This document shows positions 3,448 to 34,102 of a stretch of DNA of 34,102 nt, one piece after another (within the stretch, counting starts at the first letter, position 1; each line of letters starts with the position of its first letter). The DNA is taken from IMG/VR virus record IMGVR_UViG_2778261316_000008; one strand, given 5' to 3'. This stretch comes from a virus. Its lineage: Duplodnaviria > Heunggongvirae > Uroviricota > Caudoviricetes. The translations under genes and the position numbers were made by a program. The notes beneath the pieces are model-generated. The model saw only the letters and a program-made list of their open reading frames with translations. It was not told the DNA's origin and did not search any database.

Positions 3448-3717
3448 TTAATGTAACGACTCTGACCAGGTAATACGGCAGCCATGCAACTCAAAGACAC
3501 CCTGACGGAAGCGCCCTGAGCCGTCATGGCCAACATGGGTATAACTCGCTTTGCCCTGCTCCAGCAGGCGGGCACAGTGCCCGTTGCGGGCGATACGGAT
3601 AACCGGCTTACTGCCAGCAATCATGACGCTCTGCACGGTAGTGTTCATGGCGTTGAGCGCCATAATGGCGGACTGCACCTTGTTCATCTGCTGGTTGATA
3701 TCGGCGATGGATTTCAT
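3448..3717 (-). CDS. hypothetical protein
   Basis: 89-aa ORF, ATG at 3717 preceded by AAGGAG, immediately downstream of the ATPase stop. Confidence 0.5.
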   Translation of the reverse strand: MKSIADINQQMNKVQSAIMALNAMNTTVQSVMIAGSKPVIRIARNGHCARLLEQGKASYTHVGHDGSGRFRQGVFELHGCRITWSESLH

Positions 3718-3719
3718 GA

Positions 3720-4886
3720 TTAAACTCCTTTGACGACGTCGGCGTTGACCTGCGGGACCCCGATTTCAGCAGCCAGATTCATGGCGGCTATCACCAGGTT
3801 ACTGACGGCCAGCGGATACAGCAGGCTGACCATGCTTTTACGGCTACTACCCAGATTGCTCAGACGGGCGCGGATGGCTTCCACTGCGCTGGCGTCCATG
3901 ATGTCGGCCAGCTGCTTACCGGCACGTTGCAGTTTGAACGTCAGAAACTCTTCGAGGCTGTTGTCCAGCGGCAGCAGTTCAACCACCTCGCAGCGCTGGA
4001 CGACCTCACGGACTTCCATGTTGCGTTCGGACAGTTTGTCCGCCAGTTCAGGCTGGCCAATCAGCACGATGGACAGCAGTTTTTTGAAGCCGGACTCCAG
4101 TTCGAAGAAGCGTTTAAGGTGCTTCAGCGTCGGAATGGGAAGGCTGTGGGCCTCCTCAATCACCAGAACGTGGCTGAAACCCGCCTGACTGCTGTCCTTC
4201 AGGACTCGGTGCAACTGGCGGAAGCGGGCGTCCTGGCTGCGCTTGATACTCTCCAGCGGCGCGATGGTGCTGATGATGGCCTCGGCGATAGCTGCCGCCT
4301 TCAGGGTTTTGCCCTTCACGTCGTTGTCTTCCATGGCGATGATGTATGGCTCGATTACAATCACCGGCGCGTTCTCGCGGTTGACGCGTTCAATCAGGTC
4401 GCGGCGCAGCGTGGATTTACCCGCACCGGACTCGCCGATAACCGCCAGAAAGCCACCATGGCGGGCGGTCTGGAACAGCGCCTCACGCACGTAGCGGATA
4501 TCCGGCGTGGTGAACACATCGTCCGCGCCCTGCATGGCTTCATCGGCGAACGGATCACGGAAAAGGCCAAACGCTTTTTTGGTTGCTGGAAATAACACCT
4601 GCTTTTTGAGTAACATGTTCTCTTCCTCACTGAGGTTGGTTTTATCGGTAGTACCCGCTGTACGGGGCGTGACAGCGCCCTGTGCAGCATCAAAACTTTT
4701 CGCTGTATCAATCCCCTTACTTTCCAGATACAACGCCAGACGCTGGCGTACCTCTTCGGGGCTGGTGCGTGGCCACTCGTTATGGTTCACAATCTGGGCC
4801 AGCGTGGCCTCGGAAACGGCGACGGCTCTTGCCACCACCGCCTGCGGGATGCGGGCCTCTTTCAGTTGTTGCTTCAGTACCAGCAT
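3720..4886 (-). CDS. AAA+ transposition ATPase (MuB/TniB/ExeA-like)
   Basis: Walker A GESGAGKST, Walker B-like hhhVIEEAH; N-terminal HTH-like region; directly downstream of DDE transposase; RBS GGAGGAAGG. Confidence 0.8.
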   Translation of the reverse strand: MLVLKQQLKEARIPQAVVARAVAVSEATLAQIVNHNEWPRTSPEEVRQRLALYLESKGIDTAKSFDAAQGAVTPRTAGTTDKTNLSEEENMLLKKQVLFPATKKAFGLFRDPFADEAMQGADDVFTTPDIRYVREALFQTARHGGFLAVIGESGAGKSTLRRDLIERVNRENAPVIVIEPYIIAMEDNDVKGKTLKAAAIAEAIISTIAPLESIKRSQDARFRQLHRVLKDSSQAGFSHVLVIEEAHSLPIPTLKHLKRFFELESGFKKLLSIVLIGQPELADKLSERNMEVREVVQRCEVVELLPLDNSLEEFLTFKLQRAGKQLADIMDASAVEAIRARLSNLGSSRKSMVSLLYPLAVSNLVIAAMNLAAEIGVPQVNADVVKGV

Positions 4887-27424: not shown

Positions 27425-27636
27425 TGTTTCTTGAACATGTTACCCGTGACGGAGAGCGCTGGGACTCTCTGGCATGGCAGTACTACGGCGACCCACTGGG
27501 CTATCCCCGGATAATTGCCGCCAATCCGCACGTGGCCATTACGCCGGTGCTGCCCTCCGGGCTGTTGTTACTGATCCCGGTTATCGAGGCTGAAGAAGCC
27601 ACCACAGAAGAGGATATTGCCCCATGGCTGAGATAA
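27424..27636 (+). CDS. tail protein X-like (gpX family)
   Basis: 70 aa, WDSLAWQYYGDP motif typical of P2 gpX-like proteins. Confidence 0.6.
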   Translation: MFLEHVTRDGERWDSLAWQYYGDPLGYPRIIAANPHVAITPVLPSGLLLLIPVIEAEEATTEEDIAPWLR

Positions 27637-28793
27637 ACAGCACTGCACAGGTCGCATCAGCGTTAACCGGCGTCAGCGATGTTCTGAGTCCGGTGTTCAC
27701 GCTGTGGTATCTGCAGAAGAACATCACCACCGATATCGCCCCCTATGTCACCCGCGTAACCTACAGCGATAACATCAAAAGCGAGTCCGATACCATTGAG
27801 GTGGAGCTGGACGACACCGATGGCCGCTGGCTGGATAAGTGGTATCCGGGCAAGGGTGACACGCTGACGCTGAAAATGGGTTATCAGGGCGAGAAGCTGC
27901 TGTCCTGTGGTACGTTCTCGATAGACGAGATCGAGGTGAGTTCGCCCGCGTCCGTTGTCGCTATCCGGGGCGTGGCCACGTCGGTCAACAACGCCCTGCG
28001 GACAAAATCCAGTCGTGGTTTCGAGAGCACCACGCTGGCGGCTATAGCCGGACGGATTGCCAAAAAGCATCAGCTGAAGCTGGTTGGCAGTATTGAGTCC
28101 ATCAAAATTGACCGGGTGACCCAGTATGCTGAAACGGACGTGGGCTTCCTGCGTCGACTGGCCAGCGAGTATGGTTATGCCGTGAAAGTGGTCAGCGACC
28201 AGCTGATTTTCTCTCATCTGGCCACGCTGCGCGATCAGGAGCCGGTAAAACAGTTGAAGCCACAGGATGTGGCCAGCTTTTCCCTGCGTGACACCATCAA
28301 CCGCGTCTACAAATCCGCAAAGGTAAAACACCAGAAGAGCAGCGATAAAAAGCTGATCGTCTACGAAGCTGATGGCGGTACCAGCGAAAGCGACAAACAA
28401 ACCAAAGGCGGTAAGGTCACCAGTGCCGACTCACTGAAGGTCAACAGCCGCGTCAGTGATCCGGACAGCGCCCGGATTAAAGCAGATTCGGCGCTGGCCA
28501 GGCATAACGAATACCAGCAGAACGGCTCGCTGTCGCTGATGGGGACGCCTCAGTTGACTGCAGGCAACAAAATTGAACTGGTGGGTTTTGGTCAGTTATC
28601 CGGGCCATGGCTGATAACTACTGCCCGCCATGCGTTTGACCGTAACAGCGGCTACATCACCGAACTGGAAGTGGCACGAGGGCCGGTTACGCAGGGCAAA
28701 GCGAAGAAAGGTAAAAAGACCGGAAAAACCCAGACGCTGACCGTCTATAAACCGGACGGCAGCACGTCCACGGTAATAAAGGAGAAAAAATAA
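27624..28793 (+). CDS. tail/baseplate hub protein (Mu P-like, late control D family)
   Basis: 389 aa; position between gpX-like and spike. Confidence 0.75.
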   Translation: MAEINSTAQVASALTGVSDVLSPVFTLWYLQKNITTDIAPYVTRVTYSDNIKSESDTIEVELDDTDGRWLDKWYPGKGDTLTLKMGYQGEKLLSCGTFSIDEIEVSSPASVVAIRGVATSVNNALRTKSSRGFESTTLAAIAGRIAKKHQLKLVGSIESIKIDRVTQYAETDVGFLRRLASEYGYAVKVVSDQLIFSHLATLRDQEPVKQLKPQDVASFSLRDTINRVYKSAKVKHQKSSDKKLIVYEADGGTSESDKQTKGGKVTSADSLKVNSRVSDPDSARIKADSALARHNEYQQNGSLSLMGTPQLTAGNKIELVGFGQLSGPWLITTARHAFDRNSGYITELEVARGPVTQGKAKKGKKTGKTQTLTVYKPDGSTSTVIKEKK

Positions 28794-29305
28794 TGGCAGG
28801 CGTCACCCGTCAGGTCGGTACGGTCAGCGCCGTCGATGCCGACAAGGTTCAGGCCCGCGTTCGTCTGCCTGAGTGCGATAACCTGCGCACTAACTGGCTT
28901 AACGTACTGCAGCGCAACACCCAGGATAACAAGGATTACTGGCTACCTGACGTGGGGGAGCAGGTTGAGGTGCTGCTCGATGCCAACGGCGAGGATGGTG
29001 TCATTCTGGGCGCGGTGTATTCAGACGTCGATAAGCCACCGTTCAGCGACAAAAACGTCCGGGGCACGAAATACGCGGATGGCGCAGAGTTCAGCTATAA
29101 CCGCGCGACCCATACGCTGACGGTCAAAGGTGGTATCGAGCGCGTAGTAATCGAGGTTGCGGTAGGTATCAGCCTGAAGGGGAAAACCATTGATTTGACC
29201 GCTGACACCACCACGGTGAACGGCAACCTTGAAATCAACGGCAATGCCCACTCCACAGGCAGCATGCTCTCTGACGGCCAGAACTCCAATCATCACTCCC
29301 ACTGA
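28793..29305 (+). CDS. baseplate spike protein (gpV-like)
   Basis: 170 aa, AAGGAG RBS, position. Confidence 0.7.
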   Translation: MAGVTRQVGTVSAVDADKVQARVRLPECDNLRTNWLNVLQRNTQDNKDYWLPDVGEQVEVLLDANGEDGVILGAVYSDVDKPPFSDKNVRGTKYADGAEFSYNRATHTLTVKGGIERVVIEVAVGISLKGKTIDLTADTTTVNGNLEINGNAHSTGSMLSDGQNSNHHSH

Positions 29306-29317
29306 CCTTCTTAAACG

Positions 29318-29355
29318 CCTTTAATATCGGCGTTCCCGCACAGGGGCAATACTGC
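29318..29355 (+). promoter_or_regulatory. candidate activator-dependent late promoter element (copy 2)
   Basis: CCTTTAATATCGG-N18-ATACTGC, matching the block at 23502-23539. Confidence 0.45.
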
Positions 29356-29359
29356 CCCC

Positions 29360-29707
29360 ATGAAAACAACTTCCGTATTCTGGCAACCGGCCCTGCAGGC
29401 CCCTGGCGAAATCGTCCGGGGGCTGGATGATATCTGGCAGGCCATTCAAATCATCCTGCGAACTCCTCGCGGCAGCGACCCGCATCGCCCGGAGTTCGGC
29501 AGCAACCTGCATCTTTATATCGACTGGCCCATCGACCGGGCTATCCCACATGTGGTGCGCGAGTCCGTTGATGCCATCCGGCGCTGGGAGCCTCGCTGCC
29601 AGCTTATGTCGGTTAAACCCGCCGTCGACGGTGAACATCTTACGCTCCGGGTGAGCTGGAAAGGCTCTGACGGACAGCCCCGGACTCAGGAGCTTTTATG
29701 GTGCTGA
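29360..29707 (+). CDS. baseplate wedge protein (GPW/gp25-like)
   Basis: 115 aa; IWQAIQIILRTPRGSDPHRPEFGSNLHLYI pattern typical of GPW/gp25 family. Confidence 0.75.
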   Translation: MKTTSVFWQPALQAPGEIVRGLDDIWQAIQIILRTPRGSDPHRPEFGSNLHLYIDWPIDRAIPHVVRESVDAIRRWEPRCQLMSVKPAVDGEHLTLRVSWKGSDGQPRTQELLWC

Positions 29708-30801
29708 CAGAACCCGATTTTATTGAACGCGATGCCGACAAAATCACGGCTGAAATGATTGCTCAGTACGAAGCCGCAACCGGCAAGACGCTGTACCCCG
29801 CCCAGGCTGAGCGCCTGTTGATTGACCTGTGGGCATACCGCGAAATGCTGGTCAGGGTAGCGGCGCAGGAAGCGGCCAAACAGAATCTGGTCGCCTTTGC
29901 CCGTGAGCCGATGATTGATTACCTCGGTGAACTGGTCGGTGTTTACCGCCTTGCCGCGCAGCCTGCCACCACCACTCTCCAGTTCTCCGTGGATGAGGCA
30001 CTGGCCATTGATGTGCTGATTCCGGCAGGCACCCGCGTCAGCGCTTCCGACAGCATTATTTTTGCCACCGATACGGACGTGGTGCTGAAAGCCGGATTGC
30101 TTCTGGTCAATGCCACGGCCACCTGTACCGAACCGGGAGCCGCTGGCAATGGCTGGCAACCTGCGCAGGTCAGTCAGTTGCTCGATGAGATTGATAACGT
30201 CGACCTGCAGGTGACCAATCTGATGGCAAGTTCTGGCGGTTCAGAGCAGGAAGACAATGACAGGCTCCGCGAGCGTATCAAACTGGCCCCGGAGTCATTC
30301 ACCAACGCCGGAAGCCGTATGGCATACCGCTTTCATGCCATGCAGGCCCATCCCAACATCGTCGACGTCGCTGTGCTCTCCCCGGTTCCCGGCACCGTAG
30401 AACTGTATCCGCTGCTCAGTACCGGCCTGCCGGAGGACAGCATCCTTACGCTGGTAGAGAGTTTCTGCTTGGACGAAAAAGTCAGGCCGCTCACTGACAC
30501 CGTGCGGGCTAAAACACCTGTGCAGGTGGATTACGCCATTGAAGCCAACATCACTATCTATCGTGATCAGGATGCCAACTCGATAAAGGACAACGCCAAC
30601 AGCGCCATACAGAACTGGGTGGCGTCCCGTACCGCCACGCTGGGGCGCGATATTGTCCCCAGTCAGATTATCAGCGTGCTGTCCGTTGCCGGAGTGTATC
30701 AGGTCGAACTGGTGACACCAGTGCTGAAGGTAGTGGCAGAAAACGAATGGGCAAACTGTACGGCGATCACTCTTAACATGACCGGGGTGTCCGATGGCTG
30801 A
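29698..30801 (+). CDS. baseplate J-like protein
   Basis: 367 aa following GPW-like gene with overlap. Confidence 0.8.
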   Translation: MVLTEPDFIERDADKITAEMIAQYEAATGKTLYPAQAERLLIDLWAYREMLVRVAAQEAAKQNLVAFAREPMIDYLGELVGVYRLAAQPATTTLQFSVDEALAIDVLIPAGTRVSASDSIIFATDTDVVLKAGLLLVNATATCTEPGAAGNGWQPAQVSQLLDEIDNVDLQVTNLMASSGGSEQEDNDRLRERIKLAPESFTNAGSRMAYRFHAMQAHPNIVDVAVLSPVPGTVELYPLLSTGLPEDSILTLVESFCLDEKVRPLTDTVRAKTPVQVDYAIEANITIYRDQDANSIKDNANSAIQNWVASRTATLGRDIVPSQIISVLSVAGVYQVELVTPVLKVVAENEWANCTAITLNMTGVSDG

Positions 30802-31372
30802 GCCGCTACAACTCCCGCCACCGCTTGAGGGTGATATCAGTCTCAGAACGCTGGGAAGACTCGCCGGGCGGCTGGATAACATCGACCTGAGCGTACTGAT
30901 GGTCTATCTCGTCGATATTGTCGACAGTTCCGCGCTGCCATGGCTGGGCGAGCAGTTCTCACTGTTCGGCGATGGCTGGGAGCTGGCGGAATCTGACGAT
31001 GTACGCCGCATGCTTATCAAATCCGCTATCGAGCTGCACCGCTACAAAGGGACGCCGTGGTCAATCAGGGAAATTATCCGCCGTTTCGGCTTCGGCGAAG
31101 TGGATCTGATTGAAGGCACTGGCCAGATTGGCTACGACGGCAAACACACTTACAACGGGCTTTTCGTTCATGGCGATGCGGAAGCCTGGGCGGTATATCG
31201 CGTCATCCTTCAACAGCCCATCACTAACGATCAGGCGGCGCTGTTACGCCAGACGCTCGCTGCTTTTGCTCCGGCCCGCTGCCATCTGGCAAGCCTGGAG
31301 TATCAGTCTGTCGCCATTCGCTACAACAACACCGTCAACTATGACGGCAGCTATAACCACGGGAGCAGTTAA
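30794..31372 (+). CDS. tail protein (P2 gpI-like / Mu gp48-like)
   Basis: 192 aa, position between baseplate J and tail fibre. Confidence 0.65.
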   Translation: MAEPLQLPPPLEGDISLRTLGRLAGRLDNIDLSVLMVYLVDIVDSSALPWLGEQFSLFGDGWELAESDDVRRMLIKSAIELHRYKGTPWSIREIIRRFGFGEVDLIEGTGQIGYDGKHTYNGLFVHGDAEAWAVYRVILQQPITNDQAALLRQTLAAFAPARCHLASLEYQSVAIRYNNTVNYDGSYNHGSS

Positions 31373-31374
31373 TT

Positions 31375-32208
31375 ATGGCAAACCTACCTGAAACCCCGCA
31401 GTGGGAAGAAGGCATCTACCAGATTGAGGTCTCTGACCCCGTTCTGGGTGGGCCTGACGGAATCTCTAACCGTCAGGGTAAACAACTGGCCAGCCGCACG
31501 CTGTACCTGAAGCAACAGGTTGAAAAAGGCGGTTCTGAACTTGCGAAACACATCGCGGCAGCAGACCCGCATACCCAGTACGCACCGAAAGCCAGCCCGA
31601 CATTCACCGGCACGCCAACAGCGCCTACGCCTGCAAATAGTGATAACAGCAAGAAGCTGGCGACGACAGAGTTTGTGGCCAAAGCACTTGCGGCGCTTGC
31701 TGGCAGCGCTCCTGAGACGCTGGATACGCTCAAAGAGCTGGCTGATGCCCTCGGCAACGATCCGAATTTTGCGACCACGGTGTTGAACAAGCTGGCGGAA
31801 AAGCTGGCCAAAGACCAGCACGGCGCAGATATTCCTGACCCGGCGCTCTTTGTCAAAAACCTTGGTTTGGGAGAATCGAAGTATGTAATTAAACGGGGAA
31901 CAAATGCTAATGGCGCCTGGATTATCTGGTCAGATGGAGCAGTCGAAGTTTTTGGTTCTGCCGTAACAATTGTTGATGGACTTGCGACAGTAACGTTTCC
32001 AGTGCAGCTTCCTGCTGTGACGAGAAATATTTCTATTGCAGAACGCATATCGCAAGACCCTGGAGTATCACCAGCATCAAACCCGATGCACGTATCAATA
32101 GTAATTGATAACACCGTCACTACGACTGGCTTTAAGGCCCGTTGTGTTATGGCGTCGGGCATGGCTTCATCGAATGGTTTTTCCTGGAGGGTATATGCGC
32201 CTGTTTAA
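31375..32208 (+). CDS. tail fibre protein S (constant N-terminus + variable C-terminus, current orientation)
   Basis: 277 aa; gix-like crossover site lies inside codons for KNLGLG (aa ~160); C-terminal ~115 aa encoded in AT-richer invertible DNA. Confidence 0.75.
   Translation: MANLPETPQWEEGIYQIEVSDPVLGGPDGISNRQGKQLASRTLYLKQQVEKGGSELAKHIAAADPHTQYAPKASPTFTGTPTAPTPANSDNSKKLATTEFVAKALAALAGSAPETLDTLKELADALGNDPNFATTVLNKLAEKLAKDQHGADIPDPALFVKNLGLGESKYVIKRGTNANGAWIIWSDGAVEVFGSAVTIVDGLATVTFPVQLPAVTRNISIAERISQDPGVSPASNPMHVSIVIDNTVTTTGFKARCVMASGMASSNGFSWRVYAPV
31853..31870. repeat. hix/gix-like recombination site (left inverted repeat)
   Basis: TCAAAAACCTTGGTTTGG; 14-bp core AAAAACCTTGGTTT is the perfect reverse complement of 33441-33454. 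Confidence 0.7.
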
Positions 32209-32380
32209 TCCGAAAATGTTAACTGAGGTTATTCCTGGATTTCATGACACCACTGATGCAATTGAATTGCCGGATGACAACTGGTTTTTCACAACAACTG
32301 AAATACCTGAAGGGAAAATACTCGCCGCAAATGAACGCGGCGAGCCCGTTCTGATTGATATTACTGTCCCGGAGGAGTAG
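32195..32380 (+). CDS. small ORF downstream of S (possible short or truncated tail fibre assembly protein)
   Basis: 61 aa from ATG 32195 with GGAGGG RBS, 14-nt overlap with S; no clear Tfa C-terminal domain. Confidence 0.35.
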   Translation: MRLFNPKMLTEVIPGFHDTTDAIELPDDNWFFTTTEIPEGKILAANERGEPVLIDITVPEE

Positions 32381-32957
32381 GCCAAATAATAACCGGTGCG
32401 CTGGCGGTGTCAACGCCCTCCAGCGCATCCAGATAATCAAGCCAGGCATTATATTGTTCTTTTTCTGCGTCCTTCAGGCGACCCATTGCTGCTTTACCAG
32501 GCCATTGCTTACCATTCATAAAGTCATTGGCCTGGCTAATCAGCGCCTGTAGTTTTGTTGCCGCCACAGAAATATCATATGCGCGCTGAGCTTCGGGATC
32601 GGCAACCCATTTATTACCATCCCATTTATCAAACTTTGTAGTTGGTGCTTCAAAAGTAAAGCCTTCACGCAACGGTCCAATATATTCGATAGTCACCGGC
32701 TTCCCGTTACTGGTGGTGTATGCTGTTTCTCCACGATGGTCTTCTTTAAGCACCCACTCAGATCCAGAAAAAATAAATACCTTCCCTCCTGCTTCGGCCC
32801 CTGGTTCTATCGCCGTAGAGCATCCGGGCATACTGACACCGATGTTAATAAACTCGTCAGACCATCCCATATATTCAGAAGTCACAGCGTCGTAGTAATA
32901 ACAGCGGATTTCACCCGGTTCTGTTGCCAGTCCGTTTACATCGAAAACAGGTTTCAT
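32361..32957 (-). CDS. tail fibre assembly protein (Tfa/U'-like)
   Basis: 198 aa; EDHRGETAY...GPLREGFT...KWDGNKWVADPEA matches conserved Tfa region. Confidence 0.75.
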   Translation of the reverse strand: MKPVFDVNGLATEPGEIRCYYYDAVTSEYMGWSDEFINIGVSMPGCSTAIEPGAEAGGKVFIFSGSEWVLKEDHRGETAYTTSNGKPVTIEYIGPLREGFTFEAPTTKFDKWDGNKWVADPEAQRAYDISVAATKLQALISQANDFMNGKQWPGKAAMGRLKDAEKEQYNAWLDYLDALEGVDTASAPVIIWPTPPGQ

Positions 32958-33472
32958 TATTTAGCCCTTACAAGAAAGTTGAATGCAATATTTCTTGGGC
33001 GGCTTTCCGTGGATGTTCTGGCAACCCTCGATAAATCAAAATTGAATGTAGAAGTTGATACGGTTCCGCCTGGTGCCGGGGGGGCCAGATTGCCCTGAAC
33101 AACGCTGCGAGAAAATACCCCCAACGCATCTGTATTTACCCCTGTATAAAGATCAACGAGATAACCAGTAACATTCTGAATGGCGTCTCCCTGCGGTGAA
33201 AGCAGGGTTCGCCCATTATCTATCCCACGTCCATCATCCCAGACACGCAGAAACTCTCCTCGCAGATCTGGCAATTTCAGGCCCGGCCAAACAAGGGCCA
33301 ATTTTGGGTAAGTGGTAGGGGAAAATGTTGAGTCGTTAAACTTAAGGAACACCATGTCGGCCCATTCCGGCATCACGGTATTTGGCATGGCAGAAGACGG
33401 CCAAAAAAATGGAACTCCTATCGGTGGTGCACCTGCTCCTAAACCAAGGTTTTTGGAAAAGCAGTTACACAT
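32957..33472 (-). CDS. alternative tail fibre C-terminal segment (S'v)
   Basis: Begins ...FSKNLGLG at the right gix-like site (same KNLGLG as in S); C-terminus ...TESRPRNIAFNFLVRAK matches P2 H / Mu S-type fibre tips. Confidence 0.7.
   Translation of the reverse strand: MCNCFSKNLGLGAGAPPIGVPFFWPSSAMPNTVMPEWADMVFLKFNDSTFSPTTYPKLALVWPGLKLPDLRGEFLRVWDDGRGIDNGRTLLSPQGDAIQNVTGYLVDLYTGVNTDALGVFSRSVVQGNLAPPAPGGTVSTSTFNFDLSRVARTSTESRPRNIAFNFLVRAK
33439..33456. repeat. hix/gix-like recombination site (right inverted repeat)
   Basis: CTAAACCAAGGTTTTTGG; core AAACCAAGGTTTTTG is identical to the core of hixL as I recall it (TTCTTGAAAACCAAGGTTTTTGATAA). Confidence 0.7.
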
Positions 33473-33520
33473 AGAGAAATCTGCAAAAATCCTCCCACTA
33501 TGATGTGAAGGAGGAAATTG

Positions 33521-34102
33521 ATGGCCGTTATTGGTTATATCCGCGTATCAACAATCGACCAGAACAGCGATTTGCAGCGTAATGCACTCACAAGCGCAAA
33601 CTGTGACCGCATTTTTGAAGACCGTATGAGTGGAAAAGTTGCCAGTCGCCCTGGTCTTAAAGGCGCTTTAAAGTGCATTAATAGCGGAGACACCCTGGTA
33701 GTGTGGAAACTGGACAGGCTGGGACGTAGCGTTAAGAACCTGATTGCACTCATATCAGAGTTACATGAACGTGGTGCCCACTTCCGCTCTTTAACAGACA
33801 GTATTGATACCAGCACTGCCATGGGGCGCTTCTTTTTCCATGTAATGTCGGCATTGGCGGAGATGGAGCGCGAGCTAATTGTCGAACGGACACTGGCCGG
33901 GCTGGCAGCAGCCAGAGCACAGGGACGCGTAGGTGGAAGGCCCAACGCATTAAAAACCCATGAGCGAGAGCAGATTGGGCGGCTATTGACGAAGGGGCAC
34001 ACCCGCCAGCAGCTGGCAATTATCTACGGTGTAGGGTTATCGACGCTTTACCGATACTTTCCGGTGGATGGTCATAGGAAGGATAACGCAGCAGGAATGT
34101 AA
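33521..34102 (+). CDS. gin: Gin/Hin/Pin-family serine DNA invertase
   Basis: 193 aa; GYIRVSTIDQN with catalytic Ser, VWKLDRLGRS, C-terminal HTH (GRPNALKTHEREQIGRLL...LSTLYRY); GGAGGA RBS; stop is the last codon of the window. Confidence 0.9.
   Translation: MAVIGYIRVSTIDQNSDLQRNALTSANCDRIFEDRMSGKVASRPGLKGALKCINSGDTLVVWKLDRLGRSVKNLIALISELHERGAHFRSLTDSIDTSTAMGRFFFHVMSALAEMERELIVERTLAGLAAARAQGRVGGRPNALKTHEREQIGRLLTKGHTRQQLAIIYGVGLSTLYRYFPVDGHRKDNAAGM

Follow-up and report, generated by a model that had tools for sequence, protein, structure and literature searches.

The far end of a 34,102-nucleotide (nt) Caudoviricetes sequence (IMG/VR record IMGVR_UViG_2778261316_000008; hereafter, the window) holds the baseplate and fiber module of a Mu-like prophage, in which an invertible DNA segment offers the tail fiber gene S two alternative tips. 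We focus here on the accessory genes that follow these tips. Behind the tip now in frame lies an open reading frame (ORF) of only 61 amino acids (aa), and behind the other tip, on the opposite strand, lies the gene for a full-length, 198-aa tail fiber assembly (Tfa) protein (Table 1). An initial annotation of the window had pointed out this asymmetry, with a tip and a 198-aa Tfa on one arm and an unrelated tip and a 61-aa ORF on the other, and every element it listed was found in place.

The invertible segment

ORFs resembling gpD, gpV, gpW, gpJ, and gpI (27624–31372 in the ORF list) precede S, whose homologs with 99% identity carry the annotation "phage tail protein." The two crossover repeats of the segment are 88% complementary, with 1562 nt between the arms (∼1.6 kb bracketed). 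A check of the sequence showed that KNLGLG is encoded in frame at both repeats, so inversion would join the constant part of S (Sc) to either tip; S is uninterrupted across the left site, which makes the plus arm the one in frame. There are 111 variable residues past KNLGLG in the plus arm versus 159 in the minus arm, and the sizes of ∼117 and ∼160 residues given initially hold with the count starting at the K of this motif.

The segment contains the plus-arm tip and the 61-aa ORF and, on the opposite strand, the 198-aa Tfa gene and a collar-type tip. The two accessory genes run head-on into each other at their 3′ ends, and related cassettes show the same convergent overlap, of 20–29 base pairs (bp). 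The invertase ORF starts just outside the segment and extends to the end of the window. In its layout, the segment is typical of the Gin/Cin/Pin class.

Table 1. Features of the fiber locus and invertible segment (positions in the window; AF2, AlphaFold2)
Feature	Position	Strand	Evidence and remarks
Tail fiber gene S: constant part Sc and plus-arm variable tip	31375..32208	+	277 aa; phrog_3100 tail fiber, E 4.8e-65, residues 1–169
Left crossover site	31848..31873		26 nt, encodes FVKNLGLG; inverted repeat I1
Plus-arm variable tip, lectin-like beta-sandwich of gp53/R-pyocin-foot type	31855..32208	+	AF2 and Foldseek
Shine-Dalgarno GGAGGG of the 61-aa ORF	32185..32190	+	Inside tip codons for S-W-R-V (sequence)
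61-aa ORF, N-domain-only Tfa homolog	32195..32380	+	phrog_5400 positions 1–58 of 145, E 4e-16; folded core residues 1–55, disordered acidic tail
Convergent 3′-end overlap of the 61-aa ORF and the 198-aa Tfa gene	32361..32380		20 bp, ORF coordinates
Full-length tail fiber assembly protein, U′-like	32361..32957	−	198 aa; Pfam Caudo_TAP, E 2.4e-25; phrog_105, E 9e-68
Minus-arm tip ORF, S′-like	32957..33472	−	171 aa, ends RPRNIAFNFLVRAK; phrog_523 and phrog_3100 tail (collar) fiber, ∼8e-51
Right crossover site	33436..33461		26-nt inverted repeat I1
Serine DNA invertase (Gin/Cin/Pin type)	33518..34102	+	Pfam Resolvase, 4.4e-46, and HTH_7, 1.1e-13; phrog_125 DNA invertase, 3.1e-85

Conservation of the small ORF

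A search of 5.8 billion proteins returned 87 clusters of homologs of the 61-aa ORF, with 57%–98% identity to the query and lengths of 56–90 aa (nearly all 56–66 aa). Their sources were Enterobacterales (Cronobacter, Enterobacter, Escherichia, Citrobacter, Hafnia, Kosakonia, Erwinia, Yersinia, and Salmonella), where these small ORFs are annotated as "hypothetical protein" throughout or left uncalled. Collections of genomes and of viral contigs together supplied ∼100 loci, 99 of them with a complete ORF. The length was 57–69 aa at 97 of the 99, and the other two were long forms of 128 and 191 aa. Across 61 distinct sequences (codons 2–55), the median ratio of nonsynonymous to synonymous substitution rates (dN/dS) was 0.14, with no pair exceeding 1. 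Variability at the third codon position was 0.44 versus 0.18 and 0.11 at the first and second positions (2.4–3.9-fold), and the alternative frames were interrupted by stops.

The signals for translation are conserved as well. The ATG of the 61-aa ORF overlaps the stop of S by 14 nt, an overlap found at most of the 99 loci, and is preceded 5 nt upstream by GGAGG. A Shine-Dalgarno motif (GGAG, GAGG, or AGGA) stands upstream of the homologs in 40 out of 44 distinct contexts, usually within the conserved S-W-R codons of the tip. In the window (32182–32208) and at the equivalent positions of ∼40 loci, the C-terminal S-W-R-V of the tip uses TGG AGG/AGA, which forms the Shine-Dalgarno sequence of the small ORF; with the ATG placed 14 nt before the tip stop, one stretch thus doubles as tip C terminus and translation start signal.

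An AF2 model of the small protein, built on a 40-sequence alignment, had a predicted local distance difference test score (pLDDT) of 91.7 and consisted of a five-stranded, 55-residue beta core followed by a disordered tail. No counterpart of this fold was found in the PDB. Read at the sequence level, the tail of the window's protein is the antisense of the C-terminal codons of the other arm's Tfa. By all these signs, the 61-aa ORF is a genuine gene whose product is translated and conserved, and no stump.

Homology to the N-terminal domain of Tfa proteins

Scans of the 61-aa ORF against Pfam (E ≤ 1) and NCBIfam returned no family and no Caudo_TAP C-terminal domain. The initial annotation was therefore right that a Tfa C-terminal domain is missing, but a Tfa signal does exist, in the form of homology to the N-terminal domain of a Tfa subfamily. 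Beyond phrog_5400, the ORF weakly matched phrog_188, a Tfa family. A profile of the small ORF searched against 1.84 billion representatives gave 50 matches, comprising short proteins and proteins of 103–192 aa that were matched N-terminally and whose C termini carried Caudo_TAP, Phage_tail_APC, or DUF4376. Long-form matches in Enterobacter and Citrobacter are annotated as "tail fiber assembly protein."

The 61-aa ORF aligns to residues 1–57 of Tfa proteins 125–134 aa long. The alignment ends exactly at a Pro-rich linker, and the long forms continue into a helical domain that ends in W-P-x-x-P; because the small ORF stops at this interdomain linker, it is without the conserved C-terminal helical module. 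In the published model of Tfa proteins, as put forward for Pam3 gp25 and TfaMu (5YVQ), a variable N-terminal beta domain binds the fiber tip and conserved C-terminal helices are proposed to serve trimerization (PMC9608196). Given this two-module model and the homology to the Tfa N-domain, the 61-aa protein is, on sequence grounds, an N-domain-only Tfa. We found no description of N-domain-only Tfa proteins in the literature searched, whose coverage was incomplete.

Long forms also occur behind tips of the kind found on the plus arm. Gene_1 of Cronobacter phage JK004 (128 aa, 41% identity over 59 residues) stands behind a gp53-like tip ORF, and a 133-aa long form with a 52% identical N-domain (locus L166, 1826–2227) stands behind a tip of the plus-arm family. 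The C-domain of the latter (…QWPGKAAIGRLKG…WLDYLDAL…DWPAQPEA) closely resembles the C terminus of the window's 198-aa Tfa, and this resemblance suggests that a convergent Tfa pair with two inverted copies of the C-domain could have given rise to the short form by losing one of them. Two subfamilies of the small protein, MRLFNP and MWYWNP, each have short and long members, so the C-domain was lost or gained more than once. The N-domains of the accessories on the two arms of the window are not detectably related (hhalign probability of 0.6% for the small-ORF profile against the 198-aa Tfa).

Linkage to one tip family

Upstream of virtually every small ORF we found a homolog of the plus-arm tip (30%–98% identity), and the small protein co-diversifies with the tip among loci (55%–98% identity). 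The less biased direction is to start from the tip. Used by itself as a protein query, the tip recovered only six short ORFs, and the tip alignment was built from the search with full-length S; it yielded 67 IMG/VR loci, of which 65 had sufficient downstream sequence. The small ORF was directly downstream in 64 of these 65. The tip is thus widely paired with such short proteins, an outcome that the initial annotation had named as one that would refute its reading, and the asymmetry of the arms is in this light a common and conserved design rather than a peculiarity of the window. At the exceptional locus (L096, 2226–3501; same contig as L129), ∼1.3 kb, probably an insertion element, separate the tip from a small ORF that is without its first eight codons.

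The tip and the small ORF are mobile as a unit between phage backbones. The pair was found in Mu-like (the window, L004, and L011), P2-like (L005–L010 and many others), and lambdoid (L015–L017) settings, in the last case downstream of a J-type tip protein.

Activity of the switch and fixed loci

Both arms were encountered in the expressed position. The P2-like cassette was on in L006, L007, and L009 and off in L005, L008, and L010, which come from different samples, and the Mu-like cassette was on in the window and L011 and off in L004. The switch is active, and both orientations are present in natural samples.

The small ORF also occurs at loci that do not invert. P2-like prophages of Erwinia, Kosakonia, Lelliottia, and others have the order H, small ORF, sheath gene FI, with neither an invertase nor a Tfa gene; there, the small ORF takes the place of P2 gene G, and no other fiber accessory is present. 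The DNA beyond it is too short to hold the C-terminal helical domain.

The initial annotation had allowed that one arm might be degenerate, in which case the 61-aa ORF would be a stump left by a deletion in a Tfa gene, with fibers that are defective or without chaperone. The ORF does equal the first ∼57 residues of longer Tfa proteins and terminates at its collision with the Tfa gene of the other arm, as such a stump might. A stump would not be expected to keep its length at 97 of 99 loci, a dN/dS of 0.14 among 61 distinct sequences, and its Shine-Dalgarno and start/stop overlap with the tip gene, nor to model as a confidently folded protein, to serve as the sole accessory gene in fixed P2-like fiber loci, and to be carried on a cassette that is seen in both orientations. 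We regard degeneration of the plus arm as refuted and the arm as functional.

The fixed loci bear equally on the idea of a split chaperone, in which the helical module would be supplied in trans, by the 198-aa Tfa or by the Tfa of a co-resident prophage. The head-on position of the small ORF against the 3′ end of the 198-aa Tfa gene, with its 20-bp overlap, would suit such a partnership, as would the great similarity of the long-form C-domain in L166 to the C terminus of the window's Tfa. However, the 198-aa gene is antisense to fiber transcription in the present orientation, the fiber loci of P2-like prophages of Erwinia, Kosakonia, and others contain the small ORF but not a single Tfa gene, and some switches have short proteins on both arms. 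This arrangement strikes us as improbable. A programmed frameshift or read-through into a C-domain was rejected: The plus-strand sequence downstream in the window is the antisense of the 198-aa gene, and at fixed loci only ∼125–330 nt lie between the ORF and the sheath gene, without a Tfa-like tblastn match.

Several loci show further arrangements of short accessory genes. L043 (3501–3882) and L091 carry N-domain-only proteins on both arms, one of the 61-aa MRLFNP type and one of the 71-aa MWYWNP type, each behind a different gp53-like tip and with a 20-bp convergent overlap between them. The switches of L015–L017 have short ORFs of 57 aa and 74 aa. On the other arm of L057 (3667–4667), a glycine-rich tip ORF of 244 aa precedes an 88-aa ORF in which the motif at the extreme C terminus (…VIWPVPPEMV) is all that is left of Tfa; this ORF may represent another type of shortened accessory. 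At L066, a fixed P2-like locus without invertase, short plus-strand remnants of a collar-type tip (3717–3904) separate the small ORF from the sheath gene. The locus resembles an invertible segment that has decayed and is now locked with its gp53-like arm in the on position.

Fold of the plus-arm tip

The initial annotation had proposed structure prediction for the S C terminus and homology searches with the tip and the 61-aa ORF. The searches led to a gp53-like tip family and to the Tfa N-domain family described above, and the structure model agreed with the former. In the AF2 model of the plus-arm tip, pLDDT in the head domain was mostly 84–97. Foldseek matched it in the PDB to the R2 and R1 pyocin fibers (6ct8, 6cxb, 6cl5, and 6cl6; E-values of 4e-4 to 1e-3, probability 1.0) and to AP22 gp53 (4mtm; E-value of 7e-3, probability 1.0, TMq 0.56). 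Template modeling (TM) scores over the pyocin and AP22 matches were 0.49–0.56, and sequence identity of the tip was just 13%–20%. At the sequence level, the tip profile weakly matched 6cxb and 6ct8. The tip aligns with S homologs bearing the Gp53-like_C domain PF21882, which many S homologs carry, and related tips score "weak" or better against this family. Pfam and NCBIfam scans of S itself returned no families.

Relatives of this fold have been studied with and without an accessory protein. To be soluble, R1 and R2 pyocin fiber fragments must be co-expressed with the chaperone encoded downstream, which is purified along with them (PMC6363177, PMC6116203). The C-terminal fragment of AP22 gp53 (gp53C) is trimeric when expressed by itself (bioRxiv 10.1101/518761), so tips like the plus-arm tip are possibly chaperone-independent; with the pyocin fragments dependent and AP22 gp53C a trimer alone, the fold class fits both modes of assembly.

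This leaves room for an alternative in which the tip folds and trimerizes unaided and the 61-aa protein is a stable cap or adaptor of the virion that contributes to, masks, or modulates receptor binding. Several lines agree with it: the lone AP22 trimer in a relative of the fold, the loss of precisely that part of Tfa proposed for trimerization and retention of the fiber-binding part (PMC9608196), the co-diversification of the small protein with its tip, and the persistence of TfaMu in mature particles, where it stays bound to the Mu fiber (PMC9608196). The chaperone requirement of the same-fold pyocin fragments (PMC6363177) speaks against it. The alternative moreover overlaps with the explanation that we favor and differs from it only in when and why the 61-aa protein binds. 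We regard it as unlikely.

The minus arm and relatives of the window

The minus-arm tip, silent in the present orientation, belongs to a fold class unrelated to that of the plus-arm tip. It gave a weak Collar match and, among PDB sequences, matched a short tail fiber (9cuy, 2.9e-12) and T4 gp37 (2xgf, 5e-7). Collar tips (PF07484) are present in S homologs that have an identical Sc. The region from 32369 to 32994 of the window, spanning the 198-aa Tfa gene and the final codons of the minus-arm tip, has 98.9% DNA identity to mEp213 and mEp043, where the counterparts are the tail fiber assembly and side tail fiber genes of lambdoid phages. Identity at this level suggests a very recent exchange of the cassette between the Mu-like prophage and lambdoid phages.

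Another relative of the window (L003; OM835952.1, "Klebsiella phage KP12 clone KP12_2") is labeled Vequintavirinae yet has a Mu-like baseplate, fiber genes, and an invertase. Where the record could be matched (43% of the query), DNA identity to the window is ∼88%; at the protein level, the invertases are 96% identical. The Mu-like part probably stems from a prophage that was assembled together with, but does not belong to, that Klebsiella phage.

A switch with accessory proteins of unequal size

From the conservation of the small ORF, its Tfa N-domain homology, its linkage to the tip, and the activity of the switch, we infer that the segment is a working Gin/Cin-type switch whose arms have accessories of different size by design, and that the 61-aa protein binds the tip, serving as a minimal chaperone specific to it or staying on it as a cap. 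We put the probability of this reading at about 0.65. In the present orientation, late transcription would give S with the lectin-fold tip, together with the 61-aa protein by translational coupling. The small protein would bind its cognate tip in the way that a full Tfa does with its N-domain, and would then either assist the folding of the tip or remain on it as a cap. The plus-arm tip would trimerize without the helical module, which would make the missing trimerization function unnecessary. After inversion, S would bear the collar-type tip and be served by the full 198-aa Tfa. Of the possibilities raised initially, a minimal or novel chaperone is thus the one favored, in the form of the N-terminal fiber-binding module of a modular Tfa; it would act either as a chaperone or as a tip adaptor that stays bound permanently.

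Some points weigh against this reading. The S protein of the window is without a PF21882 match, and its Pfam scan at E ≤ 1 returned no family at all. By analogy with AP22, gp53-type tips may not strictly need a chaperone. The tight linkage of tip and small ORF could, finally, reflect inheritance as a cassette as much as functional dependence.

A bolder proposal, which we find possible but doubtful, is that these proteins form an unannotated class of "half" Tfa, in which the tip-binding domain alone suffices and stays on the mature fiber as part of the receptor-binding tip. If so, the helical Tfa module would be dispensable for lectin-fold tips, and the small protein would be an overlooked determinant of host range that needs to be moved together with the tip in fiber engineering.

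The findings matter beyond the window. A widespread family under selection retains only the tip-binding module of Tfa. In many prophages of Enterobacterales, whether P2-like, Mu-like, or lambdoid, it is the sole fiber accessory, which suggests that the helical module is not universally required. Comparing the short form of the window with the long forms of L166 and JK004, which stand behind related tips, would be a simple way, provided by nature, to tell the "binding" role of Tfa from its "assembly" role. On the practical side, such ORFs, annotated as hypothetical or left uncalled, could easily be left behind when phage or tailocin fiber tips are swapped to alter host range.

Comparison with known systems

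The closest profile to the small ORF, phrog_5400, has no assigned function. The ORF matches its first 58 positions out of 145, and a profile more than twice the length of the ORF represents the long form. Among fibers of related fold, AP22 gp53 (Gp53-like_C, PF21882) resembles the plus-arm tip and was crystallized without any reported chaperone. The R-pyocin foot and its chaperone (PA0620 and PA0621) are alike in the fold of the tip, and the pyocin fiber too depends on a co-purifying protein encoded just downstream; unlike in the window, that protein is described as a Tfa-type fiber chaperone and not as one of 60 residues.

Measured against Tfa proteins (Caudo_TAP, PF02413; Mu U/TfaMu 5YVQ, P2 gpG, lambda Tfa, and Pam3 gp25), the 61-aa gene likewise lies directly downstream of the fiber gene. 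Its product is homologous to the N-domain of a Tfa subfamily (125–134-aa proteins of Enterobacter and Citrobacter, and JK004 gene_1) and, to judge by homology and linkage, would resemble Tfa in having a variable N-domain specific to one tip family. Unlike Tfa, it is without a C-terminal helical module, has only ∼55 folded residues, and has no Pfam or NCBIfam match. The small accessory thus fails one defining feature of Tfa, the C-domain, and shares with it the N-domain, the position, and presumably the role.

The invertible segment as a whole is like the Mu G, P1 C, and e14 P segments. It has an adjoining serine invertase, 26-nt inverted crossover sites inside the fiber gene, and a constant fiber N terminus with alternative tips on opposite strands, each with a downstream accessory gene. 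Mu has full-length Tfa genes on both arms (U and U′). The window differs from Mu in that its arms carry a 198-aa Tfa and a 61-aa, N-domain-only protein, whose genes overlap convergently by 20 bp, behind tips of unrelated fold.

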